The translations under genes were made by a program, and so were the position numbers. A stretch of DNA of 64,000 bases, from positions 12 through 64,011 of the forward strand of contig CAYLWF010000021.1 of NCBI GenBank assembly GCA_964387505.1, given 5' to 3'. Each line of letters starts with the position of its first letter. The first letter of the stretch is position 1. The notes beneath the pieces were generated by a model that worked only from the letters and a program-made list of their open reading frames with translations, was not told the DNA's origin and searched no databases. Origin of the DNA: an uncultured Candidatus Saccharibacteria bacterium (GTDB lineage: Bacteria; Patescibacteriota; Saccharimonadia; Saccharimonadales; UBA4665). Shown here in pieces: positions 3,154 through 63,154 of the stretch.

Positions 3154-5667
3154 TTATGGTTTCGCAGGATCGTAATAACCCAATTGGTATGCATTCATGC
3201 GATAATCAGTGTTTGTCAGAGTTGTTGATTTATGCACTCGGGTTCCCGAGACTCCTGGTATGCTTGAGCCATTTATGTATGCCGCAAAGTTTTTTGCTCC
3301 GCAAAGGGTGCTCACGGCACTCGACCCGGGCAGCAGGTCTACCCCCCTAACGCCGACATGATAGCTTCTGTTGAAGGTGGTTATGTTGTAGACGATCCTA
3401 TTGCTCGAGTCGGTGGTAGAAACGTTATACCCCCAACAATCTGCTGCGGTCGCGTGTGCGCTTAACTGGCTAGGACCGTAACACGGTGTCTTGCCGCCAC
3501 AGTAGACGGCTGCGTTCACGGTCACAGAAACCGTGTTGCTTGCGGTTGTGCCGCCCGCGTTTGTACAAGAAAGGGTAAATGTGTATGTCCCTGCTGTACC
3601 AAGTGTCACTGCCTGAGAGCCACCGCCAGTGGTTTTACTGCCGCTCCATCCGCTGCCGCCTGCTGTGCATGAGGTAGGGCTATTACTGGTCGTCCAGGTG
3701 ACTGTGGTGGTTCCGCCGCTCGTTATAGTGTTGGGCGCTATCGAAAGATTGACTGTAGGTGTTGCGATGGCAGTCACTGTAGTAGATTTTGTGTTGCTTC
3801 CTGCGCTGTTAGAACACAGTAGAGTAAAGGTTTTCGTGCCTGCTGACGTTGCCGTCACAACCTGGCTGCCACTTGCGCTCTTCGCTCCGCTCCAGTCGCC
3901 GCTAGCGGTGCATGAGGTAGGGCTATTCGCGGCGCTCCAACTGACAGTTACCCCACTCCCAACACCAACTGTCGTCGGTGTGGCGGATATGGAAACGACT
4001 GGTGCACTGACAGTGACGCCACTTGTAACGCTTACAGAGGTTTGTCCGGTCCCCGTACCACCGGCATTTGTGCAGTCAAGATAGTAGGTATATGTCTTTA
4101 CTGTCGTGAGAGCTCCAGTTGAAGCTGTTCCACCGGTTGTGAGTTTTGAACCACTCCAGTCGCCACGTGCAGTACATGACGAGGGATTGTTTGTCACTGT
4201 CCAGCTAAGGTTTGAGCTAGCTCCTGCTTTTATCGAGATGGGGTTGGAAGTGAGTGTAACAACGGGCTTTTGTGGATTAGCGACAGTAAGCATGACATTG
4301 TTTGCAGAGCCTGTACCACCGGCATTTGTGCAACTCAGGCTATACGGGTATGTTCCAGCGCTCATGATCCCGGTACTGACGGCGCCGCTGCTCCCACGAG
4401 ATCCATTCCAGCTGCCACTTGCTGTGCAGCTTGTTGGGTTGTTTGTAGCTGACCATGAAATGGTTGCTGATTGACCAGTAAGTATACTAACAGGGTTAAC
4501 CGTAAGTGATACGTTTGGAGCTTTTGGAATAACCTGTACAGTGACTCTGTCGGTCGTACCTCCAGCACTATTTGAGCATACTAGGTTAAATTGATAGGTT
4601 TTTATGCTCGTCATGTTGCTCATTGTTTGCGAACCGGCAGCCGGTCGGCTCCCAGACCAGTCACCACTCGCCGTACAACTCGTTGGACTATTTGTGGCGC
4701 TCCATTTGATGGTGGTTCCACCGCCCGGCTCGATAGGTCCAGCTGGGGTTGCGTCTATGGTAACGAGCGGGACATCTGGTGGTAGCGCCTGAACAGTTAG
4801 AAAGGCGCTCTTTGGGTCGGAAGAGCCACTTCCGTTTCGACAGATAATCGTGTATGTGTATTGTTTTGTAGTGGTCAGTGTTGCGGTACGTTCACTGCCA
4901 GACCCTGCCTTTGTGCCGGTCCAGCTACCGCTTGCCTCGCAAGAAGTCGGATTGTTGGTGGCCTCCCATCTAATTGTACTTGTTGTACCAGCGTAGATGA
5001 GTGCAGGGACAGCTGCGATTGTTACTACAGGCTTGCCCGTGCTGACTGCCGTAGGGCTATTGTTTGTTGTGGCTGTTTGAGTTGTTGAGGAATCGCCGGT
5101 GCTTATATCAGATGGTGTAGTGACACTGACGGGTACAGTTGCGAAACCAGTGCCGGTGTCTGTTTTGCAGGTTAAGGTAAAGAGGTAGTTCTGTAATTTT
5201 GTGAGAGTTTGAGTTGTCTCGTTACCGCCGGCAGTATCTTTGTTCCCACCCCAGTCATCACTTGCCACACAGCTATGAGGGTTATTTGTAACGGTCCACC
5301 GTAGAATTGCTGATTTCCCTTGGACTACGGTTGCCGGCTCTGCAGTAAGCGTAATGACGGGCGCGTCTGTTCCGGTTGTTCCTCCAATTCCAGTTGCAAG
5401 GTCTCCACCCGGAAGTGCAGATGGGTTTTTGCTAATACCAGTCGTTTGTGGAAGATTAGTATCGAGCCCATGTTTCTTACTGAACTCGGCATTATTGCTC
5501 TGTACGGTGAAAATAGCAAAGCTCACCATGCTGAGAATCATGATAGTCGACACAATGAAAATCATTATCTTTGTGCCGCGTGTACCAAATTTTGGCAATC
5601 GATCACGCCATCCACCCATTGGGGTCTGTGGAGTATTAAATTCAACAACGACTGGATTAAATTCCAT
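3154..5667 (-). CDS. Large surface protein: N-terminal TM anchor, 7 Ig-like repeats, C-terminal Cys-rich cytochrome-b5-like domain
   Basis: 837 aa. There are seven ~88-aa repeats, each with W..TNNPTSCTASG.WSG...Y.(F/L).C.N (two conserved Cys). The C-terminal 117 aa (VYCGGKTPCY...DCWGYN...VYNITTF...YH...VHK...LGYY) resemble a cytochrome b5-like fold but lack HPGG. Confidence 0.7.
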   Translation of the reverse strand: MEFNPVVVEFNTPQTPMGGWRDRLPKFGTRGTKIMIFIVSTIMILSMVSFAIFTVQSNNAEFSKKHGLDTNLPQTTGISKNPSALPGGDLATGIGGTTGTDAPVITLTAEPATVVQGKSAILRWTVTNNPHSCVASDDWGGNKDTAGGNETTQTLTKLQNYLFTLTCKTDTGTGFATVPVSVTTPSDISTGDSSTTQTATTNNSPTAVSTGKPVVTIAAVPALIYAGTTSTIRWEATNNPTSCEASGSWTGTKAGSGSERTATLTTTKQYTYTIICRNGSGSSDPKSAFLTVQALPPDVPLVTIDATPAGPIEPGGGTTIKWSATNSPTSCTASGDWSGSRPAAGSQTMSNMTSIKTYQFNLVCSNSAGGTTDRVTVQVIPKAPNVSLTVNPVSILTGQSATISWSATNNPTSCTASGSWNGSRGSSGAVSTGIMSAGTYPYSLSCTNAGGTGSANNVMLTVANPQKPVVTLTSNPISIKAGASSNLSWTVTNNPSSCTARGDWSGSKLTTGGTASTGALTTVKTYTYYLDCTNAGGTGTGQTSVSVTSGVTVSAPVVSISATPTTVGVGSGVTVSWSAANSPTSCTASGDWSGAKSASGSQVVTATSAGTKTFTLLCSNSAGSNTKSTTVTAIATPTVNLSIAPNTITSGGTTTVTWTTSNSPTSCTAGGSGWSGSKTTGGGSQAVTLGTAGTYTFTLSCTNAGGTTASNTVSVTVNAAVYCGGKTPCYGPSQLSAHATAADCWGYNVSTTDSSNRIVYNITTFNRSYHVGVRGVDLLPGSSAVSTLCGAKNFAAYINGSSIPGVSGTRVHKSTTLTNTDYRMNAYQLGYYDPAKP
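3508..5361 (-). repeat. Seven diverged tandem coding repeats (~264 bp each) encoding Ig-like modules
   Basis: The periodicity is seen directly in the translated protein (aa ~103-720 of the 837-aa ORF). The repeats are diverged at DNA level. Confidence 0.8.
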
Positions 5668-40666: not shown

Positions 40667-43600
40667 CTATATACCAAGTACTTTTGCGAGTGCCGGTCCG
40701 CCGAACTGTTTTGCGACTGTCATTGCATCTGATGGAGCAACGCCATCTGCAAGTTGGTGAGTGAAACGGACTTCCCTTTTTTCATTTTTCTCGGTTTTGA
40801 AGTGTCTGAACGATATCTCTACTGTCGTACGAGCATCATTTTTTGCTTCTTCTAGTCTTTTGACGGCACCATGGTGGTGGGTAGCGAGAACGACACGGTG
40901 CCCGCGCTTGGCAAGCCATTCAAGCGATGCAAGGAGAAAAGCCTCCTGGTAGTAGGATGGGATTGTGGAAAATGGTTCGTCCACGACGACAAGTGATGGT
41001 GCGGCATAACGTAGTTTTTCGGTGATGGTTTTCCAGTACTCCATTTCCATACCGAATGACCCAAGACCTTTGCTAGTATCGTGCTTAGGACGGTCTGCGA
41101 AGATAATGTGCTGATATAGTGGCGAAGACATGGAACTGCTTGGAGAGAAGCCTGTTGCTTGAATAAGCGCGTGGTTGGCAAAAAGTGTCCGAAGTAGCGT
41201 TGTCTTGCCGCTCATATTTGCACCGGATAATACGTCTATGCCGCCCTGTTGATATGTGACGTTGTTTGCAGTGTGATTGCGGTGACTTACATTGCGTGTT
41301 TGTGTGATTGTAGTATAATCTGCTTCTTCCCATGGAGCGTACGCATGCTCTTTCATGAAGGTAGCTATATCAAGCAGCCTCATGAGTAATATTGCTTCTG
41401 AGTAGGGTGTAACGGGTAGTTTGCCTGCAAAATCCCACCTATTACGAGACACATTTCCGATAGGGAGATTTGGGTAGTCTTCCTGCGTCTGTAGTTGTTG
41501 GGAAACCCACTTGCCATACAAACTGCCACTTGCTTTGCTGGCAAAAAATAGCCGAGTATTCGTATCGTAATAGTGAGCTAAGTCTTGGGCGATTGTACCG
41601 TCTATAGCCTCGAGATGGGTTATGATGGCGTCGATAGGCTTGTGGTCATCTGCAACAAAACGTAGGATCGATAGCGTACGAACGACGGGAGTTTTTCCAC
41701 CGGCTTGTTCTACAGTCACCGCTGCGCGATAGAGTGCATCAATTTCACTCACAAAGTTTGGCAGGCCGTTAAGCTGCAGGCCTGATTTTTTAATGATTTT
41801 TTGTAGTTTTTCTGGCACGCCTTTGTGGTGAGGCATAAAAAGATCGTGCAGTCGATAGATAGAGGTATAGGTAAGTTGAGTGCTTTCATGCCTTATCAAT
41901 TCGTTATTCTCCGGGTCGTATGAAGTGGGATAGAAAATATCATCTAACTTCTCCAAAAAGTTTTTTTGACTCCAACCATCTTTCTTAAAATGTGCTTTGC
42001 CAAACGCGTATAGCTTATCGCGGAGTTCAATATCGACAGGCTGTCGGTGGGCAACGCGTTTTTCGTATGCATTATCGCTCGTACTATATTCAAGCCATGC
42101 TTTCAGGGGACGGTACATATTCTGAATTTCTTCAAGAAGACTGATGTAATCTGCGATAAACGTTTGAGGTTTCTCGTCTGTGGGGTTGAGCATGGCTTGA
42201 ATTGTTCTCAGCAGCTGAAGTGCGTAGGCGTCTTTTGTATCAAGCAAGTGAGAGAACTCCTCTTCTGTCATGCTATGATACGGGTCAATTTCAACTTCTA
42301 TTTTCTTGAGCAGTGTTGTAAACGTTTGTGCTACGTTGGCGAGCGGGTTGTATAGTTCCGGCTCAAGCGGGTCTTCGCCGAAGCGGTATCGGTCTCGTGA
42401 GAGGGCAAAAACAAGACGCCGGAAATCATCAAGGTCTGTTCGAAGGTCATCCTTTTGGCCGTACTCGGTAATACGCACGAAAAAGTCCTGACGTGCCCGT
42501 AAGACATCTATTGAGGATGTGCTTCCCTCTTGCAGTAATGTATGTAGTACTGAAAGGGGGTATTCATAGTGGTTGAAGATACTATCGCTACCAAGAATGA
42601 GTGCGGCATTGTACATCGGGGCTGCTTTCGGTACCGTGCCATCACGGGCTTTAGTGATTCTCGTGTAGTTGTAGTCATCATCCATTTGGCTTGGGCATGC
42701 GGGTTTTGTGTTCCCAAACCACATAAAGCCAGCTGGCCCACCTTGCGACTTGAACCATGCGATCGGATCCTCGGGGTTAAGTTGTCGCGTCTCTGTCTCT
42801 GTCAGGTCAAGTGGGGCACCTTTTGCAATTGCTTCAGCGCGGGCAAGTACCTCTTCTGCAAACTGACAGTTACGCGCCTCAGTAAAAGCATCGCTATGTG
42901 CGATGCCAGGCTCAAGTAAGTGTTCACCTTTATCCTTCGACGCTCTGTATGCGACCACTGCGCCCGCTTCTACTGGGGCAGACATGTCGTCATGTGTTGT
43001 GACGAGAGCCATGATGCCAAGACGACGCAGACCGTCTAGGTAGCGTATAAGGAGCTCTTGTCTTTCGTCTGGGTCAGTACCTGAAAATGGCTCGTCACCG
43101 ATGTAGAGAGTGATTGCGTCTGGGTTTTGTGCGAGCAGTGTTTCGACAGTCGTTACCAGTTTACCAAGCTTAACAACTTCTTCACCAAAGGCACTGAGTT
43201 CGCCACCACTCTCTGGTCGTGCAACCTCCTGTAGTAAGCGCACAGGAGGTACTACTGCACTTTCGGCTGCTACATGCCCAGTCGAAAGGCCATTCCTTAT
43301 GGCCGCTGCAATAGCTTCAGTTGCAAAGGTCTTTCCCGATCCTGGACTGCCGGTGATAATGACTGGCCTGTCACTGATTGTTATGGAATGGCGAGACTGA
43401 GCGGCAGGATTGAAACGTGGGTGGAAAAAATTATCGAGTGTAATCTCGCGGGCGCCTGAAACGTGTGCGGGCTTGGCGGGCAGCGTAGAGACAAACGAAG
43501 CGAGAGCCAGTGTGTTGGTAGTATGCCGATACATTTTGGCTGAATCATCGAGTACTCGTTGCTGAGCACTATTTAGCTCTTTGCCGCTATTCTGGATGTA

Positions 43601-44221
43601 TACTGAGACACAGAGAGATCTGGATGCTTTAGTTTTGGTATACGATCCTTGCTGCTCTGCAAGACGTGCAAGGTGGGGGTAGTCTTGAGCGTAATGATTA
43701 TTGAATGCTGCAGCCGCCTTTCTTTCTCCATGGAGTTTAGTGGGTAGCTGCCATACCGGAAAGTCATCTGGCCTGTACTGGACCTGCTCAGAATCGGACG
43801 CTTTACGAGAGGCACTATCGCGTCTGTACTGTTCTATGCGGGGGGTGTATATGGGCTGTTCTTTTGTGCTGAGTTTCGGGTCAAACACGCTGCTAGTGAG
43901 CCAATCGTGCAACTCGCCGGCTGCAAAACAGTCTCGAAATAGTCCATGAGCAGTCTCATCGGCTGCGAGCTTTTGCAGTTCGCTAAGGATTTGCTGTCTT
44001 TGCTTCACGGCGTCAGGGTCACTACTCGCTTCGTTGAGTATGTAATCTAGTGGATTGAAACCATAAAATGTCTTGGGTTCTCCCATGAGGGCTGGGTTGA
44101 GCGGAAGGCTGCCTTTTTTCAGTGGTCTGCGCAAGGAGCTTGGATCTATACTATTCGCAATAAGCGGCGCCGGATTGCAAAAAACAGCACCAAGGACTCC
44201 TTGCTCTACAACAGAATTCAT
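40667..44221 (-). CDS. Tandem MutS-type (domain V-like) ABC ATPase protein. No mismatch-binding or nuclease domain was recognised.
   Basis: 1184 aa. Half 1 has VIITGSPGSGKT, LYIGDEPFSGTDPDE and LVTTHDD. Half 2 has VLSGANMSGKTTLLRTL, LVVVDEPFS and VLATHHHG. Confidence 0.6.
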   Translation of the reverse strand: MNSVVEQGVLGAVFCNPAPLIANSIDPSSLRRPLKKGSLPLNPALMGEPKTFYGFNPLDYILNEASSDPDAVKQRQQILSELQKLAADETAHGLFRDCFAAGELHDWLTSSVFDPKLSTKEQPIYTPRIEQYRRDSASRKASDSEQVQYRPDDFPVWQLPTKLHGERKAAAAFNNHYAQDYPHLARLAEQQGSYTKTKASRSLCVSVYIQNSGKELNSAQQRVLDDSAKMYRHTTNTLALASFVSTLPAKPAHVSGAREITLDNFFHPRFNPAAQSRHSITISDRPVIITGSPGSGKTFATEAIAAAIRNGLSTGHVAAESAVVPPVRLLQEVARPESGGELSAFGEEVVKLGKLVTTVETLLAQNPDAITLYIGDEPFSGTDPDERQELLIRYLDGLRRLGIMALVTTHDDMSAPVEAGAVVAYRASKDKGEHLLEPGIAHSDAFTEARNCQFAEEVLARAEAIAKGAPLDLTETETRQLNPEDPIAWFKSQGGPAGFMWFGNTKPACPSQMDDDYNYTRITKARDGTVPKAAPMYNAALILGSDSIFNHYEYPLSVLHTLLQEGSTSSIDVLRARQDFFVRITEYGQKDDLRTDLDDFRRLVFALSRDRYRFGEDPLEPELYNPLANVAQTFTTLLKKIEVEIDPYHSMTEEEFSHLLDTKDAYALQLLRTIQAMLNPTDEKPQTFIADYISLLEEIQNMYRPLKAWLEYSTSDNAYEKRVAHRQPVDIELRDKLYAFGKAHFKKDGWSQKNFLEKLDDIFYPTSYDPENNELIRHESTQLTYTSIYRLHDLFMPHHKGVPEKLQKIIKKSGLQLNGLPNFVSEIDALYRAAVTVEQAGGKTPVVRTLSILRFVADDHKPIDAIITHLEAIDGTIAQDLAHYYDTNTRLFFASKASGSLYGKWVSQQLQTQEDYPNLPIGNVSRNRWDFAGKLPVTPYSEAILLMRLLDIATFMKEHAYAPWEEADYTTITQTRNVSHRNHTANNVTYQQGGIDVLSGANMSGKTTLLRTLFANHALIQATGFSPSSSMSSPLYQHIIFADRPKHDTSKGLGSFGMEMEYWKTITEKLRYAAPSLVVVDEPFSTIPSYYQEAFLLASLEWLAKRGHRVVLATHHHGAVKRLEEAKNDARTTVEISFRHFKTEKNEKREVRFTHQLADGVAPSDAMTVAKQFGGPALAKVLGI

Positions 44222-52802: not shown

Positions 52803-52892
52803 TCACTCTATACTACCAGATTACTTGCCGATTCCGATGGCGTAATGCCTGAATATCAAGCAATGGGTTTACATAAGCGCTATACTGTAGCT

Positions 52893-53691
52893 ATGAAAGT
52901 ACAGAACAAAACAATTGTGGTGACGGGAGCTGGTGGGGGTATAGGTAGTGCGTTGGTGCGAGAACTGTTGCGCCGCGGAGCGCGGGTCGCAGCCGTCGAC
53001 TTACGTGAAGAAGGCTTACGAGCACTGAAAAAGCAGTCTTTCAGATGCCGAAAAACTGAGTCTGCATGCGCTGGATATTACTGACCGCGAAGCAGTTGCG
53101 GCGTTGCCGGCACAGGTTATTGCAGCACATCGGCAGGTGGACGGGCTTATCAACTGCGCGGGCATTATTCAGCCGTTTGTGAAGGCGCAAGACCTAGATT
53201 TTGTCGCTATAGAGCGGGTGATGAATATAAATTTTTACGGCACGCTCACTATGACTAAGGCGTTTTTGCCAGAACTGCTGAAGCGGCCAGAAGCGCACCT
53301 AGTGAATGTTTCAAGTATGGGCGGCTTTCTGCCAGTGCCAGGCCAGAGCGTGTATGGGGCGAGTAAGGCGGCCGTGAAGCTACTAAGTGAGGCGCTTTAT
53401 GCCGAGTTGCTGGCTACACCCGTTCACGTGAGCGTCGTGTTCCCGGGTGCCACGCAAACTGACATTACAAAAAATTCGGGTGTGAAAGCACCGGTTGCAC
53501 CCGGAGACATGAAAAACTATAAATCCCTCACTGCGGATGCCGCTGCGCGACTGATGTTGGACGGTGTAGAGCGCAACAAAGTGCAGATTTACACCGGCAG
53601 TGACTCGAAATTTATGCACCAGCTCTACCGCTTTGCACCGGTTTTTGCCACCCGCTTCATTGCCAAAAAAATGAAAAAACTCCTGCAATAG
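52893..53691 (+). pseudogene. Short-chain dehydrogenase/reductase, frameshifted copy of 62357..63154
   Basis: ORFs 52845..53084 and 53104..53691 together align with the intact paralogue. Removing one A from the A5 run at 53038..53042 restores ...ALKSSLSDAEKLSLHALDITD... in frame. Confidence 0.7.
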
Positions 53692-56434: not shown

Positions 56435-56907
56435 AACAAAAACATTCTGTCAGCAACACTGTTATGGCGCAAATCAAAACCGGCCAGCTACAGATGAAAC
56501 CGAGGCGCTACTACACGCTACTCACACTTGTTTCGGTTATGTCCGTGGGCCTTGCATCTCTCGTGAGCGCATATCTGTTTAGTATGCTGTTTTACTGGGT
56601 ACGCATACACACTGCCGACACGCCGGCGTGGGGCGCGCGGGCGCGCCTGAGTGAATCACTTGCGTCATTTCCGTGGTGGGCGCTTGGTCTCGCGCTGCTA
56701 CTCGTAAGTTTTACGGTCTGGCTGGTACGCCGCCACGGCCGGATGTATCGCCACCGTACTGTGACGCTCGGACTCGCCATGCTCGCTCTTTCTCTGCTCT
56801 TTGGTTTTGTGCTGTCTTACCTCAACATTGGCCGGCCGCACACGCCGCTTCGTCAGAATCAGTCTGTTCAGCACGATCGGCCAAACGCAGGCTGGCACCG
56901 CTATTAG
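56431..56907 (+). CDS. Polytopic membrane protein, candidate anti-sigma factor
   Basis: 158 aa. Its start overlaps the stop of the sigma gene by 4 nt. It has ~4 TM helices and no recognised motif. Confidence 0.45.
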   Translation: MKQKHSVSNTVMAQIKTGQLQMKPRRYYTLLTLVSVMSVGLASLVSAYLFSMLFYWVRIHTADTPAWGARARLSESLASFPWWALGLALLLVSFTVWLVRRHGRMYRHRTVTLGLAMLALSLLFGFVLSYLNIGRPHTPLRQNQSVQHDRPNAGWHRY

Positions 56908-57064
56908 ACCGCTTCCCAAATAAATCCTCTGCCCATAACGTGCCATTTTTGCCCCAAACAAACTTTTTGCTTCGCATTGTAACAACGTTACAACTTGTCA
57001 CAAAAAGTCTCTTTGGAACAGAAATCATCACGTTCAGGGCTGGAGGATTTATTTGGGAAGAGGT

Positions 57065-57457
57065 CTATTGAACGAGTTTGCCGCCTATGGACTTGACGCG
57101 GGCAAGGCCGCCGAGATCAGTGACATTTGTGTAACCGGCGTTTTTGAGCAGTCCGGCGGCTTGCGAGGAGCGGCTGCCGCTTTCACAGTAGAGGTAGATT
57201 TTTGCATCTTTTGCGGTGTCTGGTAGTTTCCCAGCTGTTATGTCTTGCAGCGGCCAGTTGATGGCGTTTTCGTAGTGGCCGAGCTTGAATTCTTCTGGTG
57301 TGCGTACATCGTACAGTTTGCCGCCTGCGGCGACATCTTTTTGCACTGTGGCAAATGTCAGTGAGGGCGCGCTGGTTTTTTCGCCCTGCTTACTAAAAAC
57401 CAGCCAGCCAAACATGACCACTAGTACTGCGACGAGCACTGCAAACCCTTTATTCAT
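57065..57457 (-). CDS. Rhodanese-domain sulfurtransferase with an N-terminal anchor
   Basis: The start is taken at ATG 57457 (MNKGFAVLVAVL..., GGAGGG RBS). The active-site loop is YCESGSRS. The longer track ORF (to 57754) is unsupported. Confidence 0.75.
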   Translation of the reverse strand: MNKGFAVLVAVLVVMFGWLVFSKQGEKTSAPSLTFATVQKDVAAGGKLYDVRTPEEFKLGHYENAINWPLQDITAGKLPDTAKDAKIYLYCESGSRSSQAAGLLKNAGYTNVTDLGGLARVKSIGGKLVQ

Positions 57458-58153: not shown

Positions 58154-58337
58154 GGCGTGGTTTCACTTGGGATGTAATGTTTTTCCCTGTTGTTTTTACT
58201 TGGTTTCTAAAAATATTTGTCGAGTAGCAGAAAGGCTATGGGGATAATGAACTACCTCTAGTGACTTGGAAGATTTGTTGCATTCATTCAACTAGCGATG
58301 TATTGAAAAGCAAAGTTTCGTAGTCTATGTAGTACTG

Positions 58338-61175
58338 TTACTTCTTTTGCATATACTCCAGTAGCTGTCTTGAGTTAAGTTTTGAATTACCAGATTCTAA
58401 TCGTATATAAAAATCATCTGCATAGTATATAGCTTTGGTTGACTTCATGACCTCTATCACTAATAAAGTCTTTTGTAGATACTTTTCAATTTTGACAGTA
58501 AAGTATCCTGAATACTGGGCGCCTACTTTTGATTTGAAGAGGTTGTCAATCTCTTTTTTGATAGTGTCAATGCGCTGTGCTTCATTTTTATTATCGTGAA
58601 TAAGGTAATCACTTTGTTCTAGCCCGGATATCTCGTGGTTATCTTGAACACCTATTATAATATGGCCGCCCTCTGTATTCATTAATGCCGAAATAGTTTC
58701 GATGATTTTTTCTGAGATACTTTTATCCTTCGCTTTAGTCTTAAGATTGTACGACCAGCTTGCTTTCAGTTCGGTTCTTTTGTTCTCACCCACATTTATC
58801 ATGTCGGCCACATATTGAGTAAAACCCAGCTCGTTCTCCTCTTGAAAATCTGAAATAGAAACATTGGTCGTGGTTTCTGTAACCATACTAAGGTAGTATG
58901 TCTTCAGAAGACGAAATGTATCTGGGACCGTAATCAGGTTTACGTTGTATAACTTTAGTATAGCAGCAGGGGTTGAGTTTGTGTCTGCCAGCACATTTTC
59001 GTCCACTTTGTCACCAAGGATATAACTAAGGCCGGCAGATAGCTCACGTAAGTGAACTCGCGCGGTGGATAGTTCAGGTAATGTTGACATAAAATAGGAC
59101 TCGTCGGCATCGATATACGTATAACCGTACGCTTTTCGTATTTCTTCCCTTAGTAACGGTATTTGATGGGGTTCATTGTCGGTTGTCTCAGCATGAGTGA
59201 GGATTTTGAGCCAGCTTAGATATACTCTAAAACGTGCTGAGTTTCTTTTAGATGACGAACCGACAAGACGATAATTTTGTACGATTAGCTCAGTAATCTC
59301 CAGTTTGTCGCTAAGGGTAGTAGCTAGGTTTAGTCCATGTATGAGAGATTTTGCAGCATTTAAAGCTAAAGTTTTTCTTGCAGCCCAGGTAAAGTTGCGC
59401 TCGTCTGCAAACGATATGTACTCATGGGATATCGACTCTTGCTCATCGTAATTATCCCAAAAAGCCTTTAGGGAGGATGAGCTAATAGTTTTCCACATAA
59501 GATATTCAGTATAGTCCTCGTAGTATTTTTCGTTTGGTTTACCTCCATTGCTTCGTTTGGCCGATTTTGCAAGCTGCAAATTCAGAGCCGCCTTATCTTT
59601 GCTCGTAGTCAGCGGACTTCGAATTTTTTGAATGATGTATCTGTGCAAAAGGTATTCTTGACGTGATTTGGATATATGTAGATTCTTTCTTGCTAGAAAG
59701 TACTCTAAGCTCTCGTCTTCGAAAGTATGACCTTCGAGCATAAGTAGTAATATTGCCTCTTCAATCGCGGCATAATAATCATACTGGTTAAGTCGGCGGT
59801 TGAGTTTGCCTTTTTTCCGTAGATGCTCTTGTATATCTTTAACACGGGTCATGTATCTCGTTGGCCACTGGGACATGATGGAGCTTGCCATGTATCCACT
59901 CAACCGCTGAGAATAATAAGGTTTTAGTCCGTCTAGGCGATTTTTCTGCAAATGCAAATTGGTTTTCGTAAGGATAATTTCATAATCTTTTTCAGTCGAA
60001 GTTAATGATGCAGAGTAAAGCTCCATGGCCTCATGGTAGTGGCGTAACTTAAATGCGGCTTTTGCTTGGTGTGTGAGGAGTTTAGATTGAACGATATTAG
60101 TCCGTGGATCATTGCTTGCTTTTAAACGCTCGTACTCCGCCTGTAGCCTTTTTTCAATGTCATTCGGGTTGTCGAATGGTTTATTGTTGATGCGTTCCAA
60201 GAAGTTTGCTTCGATGTTTTTGCGAATAAGTTTATCTTTGACTAGTTTTGATAGCAGGGTTTTGAGAATAGTCTGGCTAGGCCGGATTTTGATGCTGGAT
60301 TTATTTTCTGCTTCAACAAATATTTCAAAAAGAACGTTCCATCTGTCAACAATATCCATTGAGTCGATTTGAGTAATAGTGTATTTGTCGAAGATTGTTT
60401 GAACATTGTTTTCTGTAACCTTTTGTACATAATCGAACGTTCGAAGACCGGCGGTGAGAGCGCCTGATTCTGCAAGTTCATAAAGTGCGTCGTCCCACCA
60501 ATCTCCTGCCAGTATTTTTCCCATTTCGGAAGCCACTCTTTCTTCTGGTAGGATGTAAAGATTGTTTATGTTTTCTTTTATCGCTTCAAGTGTTTCGGGC
60601 TCTATGTTGAACCCGAGTTGACTTACAAACCTGTATGCTCGAATGATTCTAAGTGGGTCTTCTCTAAATTTGATGTTTGCGTCACCGACTATTCTGATAA
60701 TTTTTGACCGTAAATCTTTAGTTCCTTCGTATGGATCAACGAATTCATCTCTAGATAAAGCCATGGCATTTATTGTGAAGTCACGCCTTGAGAGGTCACC
60801 GTCTATGTCGGCTACGGCCTGAACCTTTGGCTTTCTTGAGCCAGAACTATAACTTTCTGATCGGTAACTTGTAATCTGTATGTCATATGCGCCTATTTTT
60901 GCAGCAATCGTCCCGAACTTTTTTCCTATCGTAAGAGGTTTGATGTTGTTCTCTGAAAGTTTTTTTTCGATTGACTCAACGTTTTCAGGGGTAGCAAAAT
61001 CAAAGTCGATAGTTTTTATGCCGAGAAGGGCGTTGCGTACCGCGCCGCCGACAAGGTAAACTTCGTCAAAAAGAGTGTCGATCAGAAGGAGCACGGGCTT
61101 CTCTTTGGAGATATCACTTAGCCTTGAGATACTTCTGTGTATCGTATTTGAGCTAGTATTTTTGTCCCCGATCAC
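58338..61175 (-). CDS. Fusion protein: CCA-adding/poly(A)-polymerase-type nucleotidyltransferase, ~550-aa helical region, C-terminal AlbA_2/Schlafen-type domain
   Basis: 945 aa with a GTG start after an AAAGGAG RBS. N-terminal motifs are VGGAVRNALLG, IDFDFAT, RRDFTINAMA and EDPLRIIRAYRF. The C-terminus has RTELKASW...ALMNTEGGHIIIGVQDN. It is strongly AT-rich. Confidence 0.7.
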   Translation of the reverse strand: MIGDKNTSSNTIHRSISRLSDISKEKPVLLLIDTLFDEVYLVGGAVRNALLGIKTIDFDFATPENVESIEKKLSENNIKPLTIGKKFGTIAAKIGAYDIQITSYRSESYSSGSRKPKVQAVADIDGDLSRRDFTINAMALSRDEFVDPYEGTKDLRSKIIRIVGDANIKFREDPLRIIRAYRFVSQLGFNIEPETLEAIKENINNLYILPEERVASEMGKILAGDWWDDALYELAESGALTAGLRTFDYVQKVTENNVQTIFDKYTITQIDSMDIVDRWNVLFEIFVEAENKSSIKIRPSQTILKTLLSKLVKDKLIRKNIEANFLERINNKPFDNPNDIEKRLQAEYERLKASNDPRTNIVQSKLLTHQAKAAFKLRHYHEAMELYSASLTSTEKDYEIILTKTNLHLQKNRLDGLKPYYSQRLSGYMASSIMSQWPTRYMTRVKDIQEHLRKKGKLNRRLNQYDYYAAIEEAILLLMLEGHTFEDESLEYFLARKNLHISKSRQEYLLHRYIIQKIRSPLTTSKDKAALNLQLAKSAKRSNGGKPNEKYYEDYTEYLMWKTISSSSLKAFWDNYDEQESISHEYISFADERNFTWAARKTLALNAAKSLIHGLNLATTLSDKLEITELIVQNYRLVGSSSKRNSARFRVYLSWLKILTHAETTDNEPHQIPLLREEIRKAYGYTYIDADESYFMSTLPELSTARVHLRELSAGLSYILGDKVDENVLADTNSTPAAILKLYNVNLITVPDTFRLLKTYYLSMVTETTTNVSISDFQEENELGFTQYVADMINVGENKRTELKASWSYNLKTKAKDKSISEKIIETISALMNTEGGHIIIGVQDNHEISGLEQSDYLIHDNKNEAQRIDTIKKEIDNLFKSKVGAQYSGYFTVKIEKYLQKTLLVIEVMKSTKAIYYADDFYIRLESGNSKLNSRQLLEYMQKK

Positions 61176-61179
61176 TCCT

Positions 61180-62265
61180 TTATCTCTCTTCTCGCCAGAT
61201 TATCGATCGGTTTTTCTGTGACGTATGTCTTGGCTCCATGCGTTTGAGGAGCTTGTCGAAGTCGCTTTCAAATACTCTGTCTTGGATGATTCGATAGCGT
61301 TCAAACTGGGTTTCGGCATGTAGTTTGGCCTGTTCGTGACTGATTTTTCCTGCACCCACGAGTATTTCACGGTCGTTGAATTCTATGAATGTATCGAGCC
61401 TGTTTGCCCAATCTTCCATGGTCATGGGTATGTTACGTTCGGCCTGAAGTTCTGCATAGTCGAGGTACATGCTGACGAGCCGGTTGAGAAAAGCAAGCTC
61501 CTCACTATTCAGATAATTCTTTGCGATGGCGACATCGTATTTTTGAATTTTCCCGTCCGGTGCCGCTTCCCATGTGGTGAGCCCCATATGTTCAATAGCC
61601 GAGCTTGCACGCTCGACGATGACTTCGGCAGCGGTATGACGATGAACCGCGTAGTGCAGCTTGTTTTGGACGGTTTTGAAAAAGTTGAGGGTGGCTGCTG
61701 CCGTTTTATCATAGTCGACACTGGTTGCATAAATGTCAGTTACCTTTTGGTAAAACACGCGCTCGCTTGCGCGGATTTCGCGGATTTTCTCAAGTTGCCG
61801 TTCAAAAAACTTCTTGTCAAACTGGTAGGCTTGTTTTAGTCGTGCGTCATCCATTGCCCAGCCCTGGATGGTATAATCTTTCACGATCTGCCGCGCCCAT
61901 GTTCGAAACTGGACAGCTCTAGCGTTTTCTACCTTGAAACCGACTGATATGACTACCTGAAGGTTGTAGTGGTCGACCAGTCGTTTGACTTCCCTCATAC
62001 CCTCTTTTTGAACTATTAAGTACTGCTTAATAGTTGCCTGATCTAGTTCGCCATCTTCGGTCAGTGACCGTATATGCTGGTTGATTGCCGAAACGCTTAC
62101 GCCGTACAGTTCGGCTATCATCTTCTGTGTCAACCAAATGTTCTCGTCCTGATAGCGCATCTCTACGCCCTCCGCACTATCTCCCGTGGCCGCTACAAAC
62201 GTCAAATATTGCGCCGCCGAAGACGGTGTTTTTTTACTGGCTTTGTTTGTGTGGGGCGTACTCAT
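61180..62265 (-). CDS. RhuM-family protein
   Basis: 361 aa. It has ENIWLTQKMIAELYGVSVSAINQHIRSL (HTH-like) and the RhuM signature HYNLQVVISVGFKVENARAVQFRTWARQIVKDY. Confidence 0.8.
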   Translation of the reverse strand: MSTPHTNKASKKTPSSAAQYLTFVAATGDSAEGVEMRYQDENIWLTQKMIAELYGVSVSAINQHIRSLTEDGELDQATIKQYLIVQKEGMREVKRLVDHYNLQVVISVGFKVENARAVQFRTWARQIVKDYTIQGWAMDDARLKQAYQFDKKFFERQLEKIREIRASERVFYQKVTDIYATSVDYDKTAAATLNFFKTVQNKLHYAVHRHTAAEVIVERASSAIEHMGLTTWEAAPDGKIQKYDVAIAKNYLNSEELAFLNRLVSMYLDYAELQAERNIPMTMEDWANRLDTFIEFNDREILVGAGKISHEQAKLHAETQFERYRIIQDRVFESDFDKLLKRMEPRHTSQKNRSIIWREER

Positions 62266-62356
62266 ATCTGTCAGTATACCACTCGGCTGATGAGGGGGTA
62301 AGGAGTGGTGGAGCTGTGGTAGTGGTGGTTTTTCTCGTAAGCGCTATACTAGAAGT

Positions 62357-63154
62357 ATGAACGTACAAAACAAAGTTATTGTGGTGACGGGAGCTGGTGG
62401 AGGGATAGGTGGTGAGTTGGTGCGAGAACTACTGCGGCGGGGCGCACAGGTGGCGGCGGTTGATTTGCGGCAAGAAGGTTTGGACGCGTTGCAAGGTGCG
62501 GTTGGCGCGTCAGAAAAACTAAGCGCGCATGCACTAGATATTACTGACCGCGAAGCGGTTGCGGCGTTGCCGGCGCAGGTTATTGCGGCACATGGGCAGG
62601 TGGATGGGCTCATCAACTGCGCAGGCATTATTCAGCCGTTTGTGAAGGCGCAAGACCTGGACTTTGCCGCCATAGAGCGGGTGATGAATATAAATTTCTA
62701 CGGCACGCTCACTATGACCAAGGCGTTTTTGCCGGAGCTGCTCCAGCGGCCAGAAGCGCATCTTGTGAATGTTTCGAGTATGGGCGGTTTCCTGCCCGTG
62801 CCCGGCCAGAGCATATACGGCGCCAGTAAAGCGGCCGTAAAACTCATGACCGAGGCGTTGTATGCGGAATTGCTGGACACGCCAGTGCGTGTGAGTGTGG
62901 TCTTCCCTGGCGGCACACAAACAGACATTACAAAAAACTCTGGGGTACAAGCACCACATGTAGATGCGGGTGCAAAAGGCTACAAAATGCTCTCTGCGGC
63001 CGAAGCGGCTCGCCTGATGGTGAATGGTATGGAAGCAAACAAACCGCAGATATTCACTGGCAGCGATTCGCGCACCATGAACAAACTCTATCGCCTCTCC
63101 CCCACTTTCGCCACTCGCCTCATCGCCAAAAAGATGAAATCCCTCCTCGGGTAA
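62357..63154 (+). CDS. Short-chain dehydrogenase/reductase (intact copy)
   Basis: 265 aa. Motifs are TGAGGGIG, NCAG, the S...YGASK catalytic triad and PG.T.T. Confidence 0.85.
   Translation: MNVQNKVIVVTGAGGGIGGELVRELLRRGAQVAAVDLRQEGLDALQGAVGASEKLSAHALDITDREAVAALPAQVIAAHGQVDGLINCAGIIQPFVKAQDLDFAAIERVMNINFYGTLTMTKAFLPELLQRPEAHLVNVSSMGGFLPVPGQSIYGASKAAVKLMTEALYAELLDTPVRVSVVFPGGTQTDITKNSGVQAPHVDAGAKGYKMLSAAEAARLMVNGMEANKPQIFTGSDSRTMNKLYRLSPTFATRLIAKKMKSLLG

Follow-up and report, generated by a model that had tools for sequence, protein, structure and literature searches.

A CCA-adding-type nucleotidyltransferase fused to a Schlafen domain in Saccharibacteria: a candidate tRNA-directed defense protein

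Introduction

What might a protein do that joins, in one polypeptide, a nucleotidyltransferase of the CCA-adding type and a nuclease domain of the Schlafen (AlbA_2) type? The question is raised by a 945-aa open reading frame (ORF), hereafter the fusion, in DNA of an uncultured Candidatus Saccharibacteria bacterium (assembly GCA_964387505.1, contig CAYLWF010000021.1, positions 12 to 64,011); this whole stretch of 64,000 nucleotides is called the window. A preliminary description, made from the sequence alone, had noted that a RhuM-family gene lies directly upstream and had proposed that the two genes form a candidate tRNA-directed defense or toxin operon. CCA-adding enzymes repair trimmed tRNA 3' ends, and the eukaryotic Schlafens SLFN11/13 cleave the acceptor stem of tRNA about 10 nt in. 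According to the main text of a study from 2025-26, prokaryotic Schlafens (pSlfns) with an Ex4(E/D)xK motif act as anti-phage tRNases and are joined to a variety of other domains; 69.6% of them lie within 10 kb of defense genes, pSlfn5 combines a conserved nuclease with a variable sensor, and RorSlfn5 cuts the anticodon arm (PMC13056530). The publication of these tRNases qualifies the view, taken in the preliminary description, that no such system had been described. That view stands for the fusion itself: no account of a CCA-enzyme/Schlafen protein was found in the texts searched, which included the main text of PMC13056530; the 55 architectures of that study are given in its supplement, where a prior listing is possible.

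Results

The fusion combines a CCA-type transferase, a helical solenoid, and a Schlafen domain

At its N terminus the fusion is a CCA-type nucleotidyltransferase, as had been proposed. Pfam PolyA_pol matches residues 39-161 (E 9e-31) and PolyA_pol_RNAbd residues 188-241 (E 3e-12), and the motifs quoted in the preliminary description (GGAVRN, DFD, RRDFTINA, EDPLRIIRA, and ENKRTELK...GGHIIIGVQD) are all present. Motif A of the head consists of GGAVRN (consensus GGxVRD) and D57-F-D59 (60999-61007; the DxD metal carboxylates), motif B of RRDFTINA (60765-60788; consensus RRDxxxNA), and motif C of DPYEG. Motifs A and B are separated by a flexible loop, YRSESYSSGSRKP, whose counterpart in an alignment with 6IBP is FRTESSYSDNRRP. 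In CCA-adding enzymes this loop is required for addition of A76; judged from its sequence, the loop of the fusion may have the same role. A profile of the fusion family matched the CCA-adding enzymes 6IBP and 1MIV (E 3e-54) better than A-adding enzymes (about 1e-40) or the E. coli poly(A) polymerase PcnB (1.8e-33), and its alignment to the A-adding enzyme 4wby extended to position ~318. CCA models also ranked first among NCBIfam models, with all scores far below the equivalog cut-offs (PRK13299, 179 bits vs. 290; tRNA_CCA_actino, 169 vs. 439; PcnB, 119 vs. 306). Among stand-alone enzymes, CCA-HD proteins 520-560 aa long come nearest, sharing 41-49% identity with the head. The AlphaFold (AF2) model of the fusion has a mean predicted local distance difference test score (pLDDT) of 82 and a low-confidence linker at residues 331-336; Foldseek aligned it with CCA enzymes over 300-400 columns with template modeling (TM) scores (target) of 0.5-0.65. 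The CCA-type part of the protein spans about residues 28-335. Of the body and tail, which hold the tRNA elbow in CCA-adding enzymes, a body-like segment superposes as far as about residue 320-335; no canonical tail domain was detected by sequence or fold, and a TPR-like region comes next.

The long helical middle, in which no motif had been recognized, has no Pfam match, and the structure and Foldseek check returned non-significant TPR-type matches alone. In a second AF2 model, covering residues 245-945, the best fold match of the helical region was to TPR proteins with an E value of 5e-3, which is not significant. The assignment of the C terminus to the AlbA_2/Schlafen group was borne out by a Pfam SLFN_AlbA_2 match to residues 797-933 (E 6e-17; 62.7 bits against a gathering threshold of 25.3) and by profile matches to SLFN14/11/13/5/12 and the bacterial AlbA_2 structure 2KYY. 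The Ex4ExK motif of the fusion is ENKRTELK (58764-58787; E797-x4-E802-x-K804), and in the profile alignment the ExxxxExK columns of the family line up with the SLFN motif. The domain also contains NTEGG and GVQD (58641-58652).

Both active sites are conserved in a small, sporadic family

A search by word index through 5.8 billion clusters returned only 14 full-length family clusters (defined at 90% identity), of 918-967 aa and 28-38% identity, with the same three Pfam domains; the matches that followed were ordinary CCA/HD enzymes, covering only about 20-32% of the query. An exhaustive hidden Markov model (HMM) search of 1.84 billion representatives (50% identity), with a profile of the middle and C-terminal parts of the fusion, yielded about 28 full-length fusion representatives. 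The existence of this conserved family means that the ORF is neither a chance reading frame nor a pseudogene. Transferase motifs A-E, the flexible loop, and Ex4ExK are kept in all of the ~28 representatives, divergent as they are, so the earlier description of the transferase active site as intact applies to the family. Alignment of 14 sequences revealed invariant columns in the transferase (G43, G44, R47, D57, D59, R130-R131-D132-F133, N136-A137, D173-P174, R176, and R179) and in the Schlafen domain (E797, E802, K804, W807, N833, G836-G837, and D845). Mean pairwise identity was 56% for the head, 48% for the neck, 23% for the body-like segment, 27% for the helical middle, and 36% for the Schlafen domain. 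Since the head is the most conserved part and retains every catalytic residue, the transferase is probably more than a passive sensor; the invariance of Ex4ExK and a flanking acidic residue likewise points to a working nuclease.

A search of 2.9 million viral contigs yielded no relative. A scan of GTDB genomes with the full-length alignment picked up generic CCA motifs, and its 80 loci were all ordinary cca, with no full-length member among them; it provided Saccharibacteria cca loci (L022) and not a taxonomic census of the family. A metagenome scan added a single new lineage (L096), the other matches being AlbA_2-only proteins.

The solenoid and Schlafen domain also occur without the transferase

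The exhaustive HMM search also retrieved unfused proteins, ~615 aa in size (range about 600-625 aa), whose N terminus corresponds to residue ~338 and which have no transferase. The solenoid and Schlafen domain are thus an independent module that occurs alone, a feature absent from the preliminary description. Because this half occurs unfused, the CCA transferase is best seen as a lineage-specific add-on to an existing unit of putative sensor and effector. One unfused gene (L093:1747-8322, L094) is flanked by hsdS and hsdR in a type I restriction-modification (R-M) operon, where stop and start codons overlap. Two others (L188:1663-6091 and L190:142-4207) belong to a three-gene operon in the order of a MazG-like gene, a helicase of the Schlafen-group-3 type (PF09848), and the TPR-like+Schlafen nuclease. 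With its separate upstream helicase, this operon is a split-gene echo of the eukaryotic SLFN11-type (group III) architecture. The R-M operon of L093 also has a GIY-YIG/DUF4357 gene between hsdM and hsdS.

The fusion occupies different sites, several of them in defense neighborhoods

The context of the fusion differs in each lineage, giving eight contexts including the window, and in all eight loci the GC content of the fusion gene is 4-11 points below that of its flanks. In L001 the fusion directly follows hsdM-hsdS-hsdR on a conjugative element with a type IV secretion system. In other lineages it follows a type I R-M locus that has a ThsB-TIR gene within it; follows a type ISP/IIG R-M enzyme, near DUF4747, Zeta toxin, and Mrr genes; or is flanked by a NucS-like gene and a GmrSD-HNH gene with a methylase. 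Elsewhere its neighbors on the two sides are, in an organism of 67% GC, a release factor gene and adk/ribosomal genes or, in another lineage, metK and PAP2/RmuC. The defense neighborhood anticipated for homologues was therefore found: four of the seven other lineages abut R-M or GmrSD genes, and the fifth is a hotspot with R-M, GmrSD, and HEPN cargo in sister genomes. Collectively, the fusion is most likely an accessory, horizontally moving defense-island gene. Two of these neighborhoods have further features. Downstream of the fusion in L001 (12904-15746), genes for a DUF2779 protein and an ADP-ribosylglycohydrolase-Macro fusion have overlapping stop and start codons and are possibly co-operonic. 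In the type I R-M locus at L008:1012-9921, hsdM is separated from a second hsdS by two unknown genes and a TIR gene of the ThsB type, and a YgjP-like metallopeptidase gene comes after hsdR.

The hotspot is lepA. In human oral Saccharibacteria lepA is split into two intact ORFs, the N-half extending to about residue 279 of LepA and the C-half beginning at about 281, and homologues of the C-half place the split in thousands of oral Saccharibacteria sequences. The gap holds the CCA-Schlafen gene alone in P0011 genomes (L009:8836-13845). In P0319 genomes, including Nanosynbacter HMT-348 (L180-L187:1-7963), the same gap holds ~6.3 kb of other cargo: an AlwI-type restriction endonuclease fragment, a C5 methylase, GmrSD_N, HEPN_MAE_28990, and unknown genes. 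When the two types of gap are compared at the DNA level, homology breaks off just past the stop codon of the N-half and resumes at the start of the C-half, so that the junctions are identical. Because the junctions match across cargo types, the fusion can be regarded as cargo that is exchangeable with the restriction and defense genes otherwise present at this variable site. This site is the strongest contextual evidence for a defense role, and the split lepA is itself a candidate defense hotspot in human oral Saccharibacteria. A second variable slot follows the LepA C-half, occupied by a 599-aa GmrSD_N protein or a 241-aa unknown protein. Compared with Aquifex LepA, the G domain of the LepA N-half (L009:8836-9894) is about 75 aa longer, owing to an insertion at query residues 67-141.

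Organization of the islet in the window

The features of the locus are collected in Table 1. The statement that the RhuM gene stops 4 nt before the 945-aa ORF on the same strand agrees with both the coordinates and a reading of the junction. The ribosome-binding string AAAGGAG cited in the preliminary description is also present; it abuts or overlaps the GTG with a spacing of ~0 nt, however, and is not a canonically spaced Shine-Dalgarno sequence. The NCBI annotation begins at the second GTG (V28), 27 codons in. Conservation of the N-terminal extension in homologues (14-sequence alignment) favors the long form with termination-reinitiation coupling, and translational coupling at the 945-aa start is the model that we prefer on sequence grounds, with the start itself uncertain. 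A scan for promoters and terminators between RhuM and the fusion gave nothing above shuffled expectation, and RhuM is a co-transcribed neighbor of the fusion.

Table 1. Features of the fusion locus, in window coordinates
Feature	Position	Strand	Remarks
Fusion ORF, 945 aa	58338..61175	-	Starts with GTG at 61175; the NCBI form, 918 aa, uses an alternative GTG at 61094
Class II nucleotidyltransferase head, residues 38-165	60681..61064	-	PolyA_pol; PDB profile matches to CCA-adding enzymes, E 3e-54
Neck, residues 166-245	60441..60680	-	PolyA_pol_RNAbd; motif D (nucleotide template, consensus [ED]DxxR) EDPLRIIRA at 60636-60662; motif E ERVASE
Body-like helical segment, residues 246-335	60171..60440	-	Last part superposing on CCA/A-adding enzymes
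TPR-like alpha-solenoid, residues 336-790	58806..60170	-	All-helical AF2 models; putative sensor/regulator
Schlafen/AlbA_2 nuclease domain, residues 791-945	58341..58805	-	Pfam SLFN_AlbA_2; SLFN profile matches
RhuM-family gene, 361 aa, N-terminal helix-turn-helix	61180..62265	-	Pfam RhuM PF13310, E 5e-106; PADLOC PDC-S05, a candidate single-gene defense family
RhuM/fusion junction	61173..61182	-	TAA-AGGA-GTG: RhuM stop, 4-nt gap, fusion start
Two-gene islet, lowered GC	58154..62356		Membrane-protein gene on one side, SDR gene on the other

The GC content is 0.401 for the fusion, 0.479 for RhuM, and 0.511 for the remainder of the window. The AT-rich shift described earlier is therefore real and smaller than estimated (about 40% GC against 51%, not about 33% against 55%); it lies mostly in the fusion, RhuM being barely shifted. 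The lower GC content of the fusion gene relative to the rest of the window agrees with the horizontal acquisition that had been suggested. No tRNA, integrase, or flanking or direct repeat was found at the islet boundaries, and the whole window contains no tRNA, Rfam match, or second CCA-like gene. Near-identical contigs all carry the islet or stop inside it, and no empty site was seen among them.

Other features of the window are as follows. Two SDR paralogues (52845-53691 and 62357-63154; 80-90% DNA identity) lie in direct orientation 9.46 kb apart and bracket the segment that holds the islet; the first copy is split into two ORFs (52845-53084 and 53104-53691) and is probably frameshifted. 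A 25-nt inverted repeat (56905-56929 / 57043-57067; 96% complementary, arms 113 nt apart) is placed between a putative anti-sigma gene and a rhodanese gene. Farther away are a 1184-aa protein (40667-44221) matched only by a C-terminal MutS domain V and, weakly, by AAA_30, and an 837-aa ORF without any Pfam match (3154-5667).

Discussion

On balance, we consider it probable that the fusion is a tRNA-directed variant of the pSlfn anti-phage defense proteins. It would be built of three modules: a class II CCA-adding-type transferase (head, neck, and a body-like segment, with the usual tail apparently replaced), a TPR-like solenoid of ~450 aa, and a Schlafen/AlbA_2 RNase. Since pSlfns follow a pattern of conserved nuclease and variable sensor, the variable solenoid would likely act as an infection sensor or regulator and the Schlafen domain as the RNA-cutting effector; that the RNA cut would be tRNA is suggested by analogy with experiments on other pSlfns and SLFN11/13. 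The CCA-enzyme module may capture the acceptor 3' ends of tRNA, by which the nuclease would be aimed at tRNA, and may itself add C/A nucleotides to those ends. Such addition could serve as repair (an antidote), as tagging, or in the sensing of CCA-less tRNAs. Upon infection, the net outcome would be the loss of usable tRNA and a shutdown of translation.

Several observations weigh against this interpretation. Docking on tRNA alone leaves the retention of all catalytic residues of the transferase unexplained. In the Schlafen domain, the invariant D845 (G-V-x-D) aligns with the second D of SLFN 'GVDD', one position past the first D, which we take, by counting along the published numbering, to be the catalytic D252 of SLFN11 (D248 of SLFN13); a third Schlafen carboxylate in the fusion is plausible from the sequence. 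The fusion has a single AlbA_2 domain, whereas the eukaryotic nucleases are two-lobed. Three of the eight lineage contexts look like housekeeping (release factor|adk-ribosomal, metK|PAP2, and lepA), and the sole defense-type neighbor in the window is RhuM, a candidate family (PDC-S05). PADLOC has no model for the fusion protein. Finally, no second CCA-like gene was found in the 64-kb contig, the part of the genome that was searched.

Comparison with known systems places the fusion near, but outside, several of them. With the pSlfn tRNases (Perez Taboada et al., Nat Microbiol 2026, PMC13056530; Cash, PMC13462974; SLFN-pAgo), as set out in the main text of the first, it shares the Ex4ExK AlbA_2 domain, the single-polypeptide fusion, the defense/R-M neighborhood, and the pairing of a conserved nuclease with a variable putative sensor. 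It differs from them in that its partner includes a complete, catalytically conserved CCA-type head, a second RNA enzyme for the same substrate class and not a typical sensor. Class II CCA enzymes (G. stearothermophilus 1MIV, Planococcus 6IBP, and human TRNT1, with A-adding enzymes and PcnB) have motifs A-E and the flexible loop in common with the fusion, as well as the fold of head, neck, and, as far as the body-like segment superposes, body; the fusion departs from them in its about 610 extra residues, lack of a detectable tail, and sporadic, non-syntenic distribution. The eukaryotic group III Schlafens SLFN11/13/14, whose known target is tRNA, share the nuclease motif and fold family; they have a two-lobed core and a C-terminal superfamily 1 helicase, whereas the fusion has one AlbA_2 domain, no helicase in cis, and a CCA transferase instead.

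The conserved pair of active sites permits more elaborate readings of a defense function. As a tentative possibility, the fusion may be a two-enzyme tRNA 3'-end device, in which the transferase reads the state of the end and then sets off cleavage by the Schlafen domain or, alternatively, restores the end afterwards. Inputs to such a device would be, for example, the CCA-less tRNAs that flood the cell on infection by a tRNA-carrying phage, or self-trimmed ends. A more specific sub-mechanism, which we regard as unlikely, is that tRNA 3' tails or acceptor ends are cut back by the Schlafen domain and rebuilt by the CCA transferase, with repair dominating until the sensor frees the nuclease. This antidote in cis would make the protein a reversible, self-limiting tRNA switch. 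It accords with the retention of both active sites family-wide, with the high conservation of the transferase head, and with the published use of tRNA-tail cleavage as an immune mechanism by Cas12a3, but CCA addition cannot mend the acceptor-stem or anticodon-arm cuts of characterized Schlafens, and the unfused module works without a transferase.

We see little chance that the transferase is instead the toxic effector, over-extending or tailing RNA 3' ends (by MenT-like blocking or as CCACCA or poly(A/C)) while AlbA_2 binds RNA or degrades the tagged RNA. The missing tail domain would fit such a role, because the C-terminal region of class II enzymes, according to what Betat and colleagues are said to have reported in 2004, helps decide between CCA and poly(A) behavior, and NCBI names one family member 'RNA-binding domain-containing protein'. 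The invariant Ex4ExK with its flanking acidic residue speaks against it, however, as do a profile nearer to CCA enzymes than to PcnB and the retained CCA-type flexible loop. A likeness to the MenT/AbiEii toxins, in which a nucleotidyltransferase acts on tRNA 3' ends in conflict, would hold only if the transferase were the effector; those proteins are DUF1814, not class II PolyA_pol, and form two-gene toxin-antitoxin systems without a nuclease, unlike the fusion. Similarly improbable is a role as repair or counter-defense cargo, in which the protein would rebuild tRNA 3' ends hurt by rival toxins or phage nucleases after the Schlafen domain had trimmed the damaged ends. The intact CCA-type active site and the position of one fusion on a conjugative element beside an ADP-ribosylglycohydrolase-Macro gene are compatible with this, but no relative was found in the 2.9 million viral contigs, the Schlafen-containing half sits inside R-M operons, and the experimentally tested pSlfns in the main text of PMC13056530 are defense effectors.

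It is very improbable that the fusion is the genome's own cca, a CCA-adding enzyme for housekeeping or quality control with an added tail that binds RNA. The organism is a member of the Saccharibacteria (the PurB of the window is 87-88% identical to NCBI Saccharibacteria proteins), and most tRNA genes inspected in this phylum need CCA addition: seven of nine in L022 and L065 have no encoded 3' CCA. That need, the three contexts that adjoin translation or housekeeping genes, and the confinement of the search for a second cca to the 64-kb contig all leave some room for a housekeeping role. A Saccharibacteria metagenome-assembled genome (L022), however, has a stand-alone 548-aa CCA-like gene among tRNA genes, which probably carries an HD domain, by analogy with stand-alone matches of similar size. 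Together with the tRNA genes that have no CCA, this gene indicates that the housekeeping enzyme must exist independently of a sporadic fusion, and the presence of the fusion in few lineages of a phylum in which CCA addition is essential argues in the same direction. In oral TM7, 177 members belong to the fusion cluster, against >3000 for the flanking lepA half, so most close relatives are without it. The preliminary description had named a sole, syntenically conserved housekeeping cca as one case that would overturn its proposal; what was found is a gene with about 28 representatives among 1.84 billion proteins, without synteny across lineages, with GC content under that of its flanks everywhere, and with scores below the CCA equivalog cut-offs.

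An obligate two-gene toxin or defense operon of RhuM and the fusion is hardly tenable: the 4-nt gap on one strand, the recurrence of the pair in all near-identical contigs, and the occurrence of RhuM-like genes beside PrrC in R-M loci (PMC3710099) would suit it, but RhuM is next to the fusion in none of the seven other lineages, nor is it listed at the three loci of the unfused module that were examined, and the unequal GC content of the two genes (0.48 vs. 0.40) suggests separate histories. The functional partnership envisaged in the preliminary description was thus not upheld; RhuM and the fusion occur together in the window lineage only, and RhuM is a neighbor, not a required partner. In R-M loci RhuM-like genes are known hitch-hikers, found alongside the tRNA nuclease PrrC, and a toxin function has been proposed for them (PMC3710099). 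The pair in the window looks like two R-M hitch-hikers left without an R-M system. The PrrC/RloC loci (Anantharaman et al. 2013, PMC3710099) resemble the fusion in placing a tRNA nuclease on type I R-M loci with RhuM/Doc neighbors. They differ in that PrrC is an ABC-ATPase-HEPN anticodon nuclease of unrelated fold, and in that the window of the fusion has no R-M genes.

A tRNA-directed variant of pSlfn defense, the interpretation that we favor, bears on a class of immune effector that has only recently been recognized. Schlafen nucleases cut tRNA in the immunity of both bacteria and humans, and at issue are how they are targeted to tRNA and how they are restrained before infection. A nuclease domain naturally fused to the one enzyme family that specifically recognizes and restores tRNA 3' ends, the active sites of both parts being conserved, offers a directly testable handle on targeting and may bear on the reversibility of tRNA-based immunity. 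If the two-enzyme device were true, the fusion would be an immune effector with its own substrate sensor or antidote in cis, neither of which has been described for Schlafens or CCA-adding enzymes. For the Saccharibacteria, members of the Candidate Phyla Radiation with tiny genomes and few recognized defense systems, the fusion would extend the known defense content.

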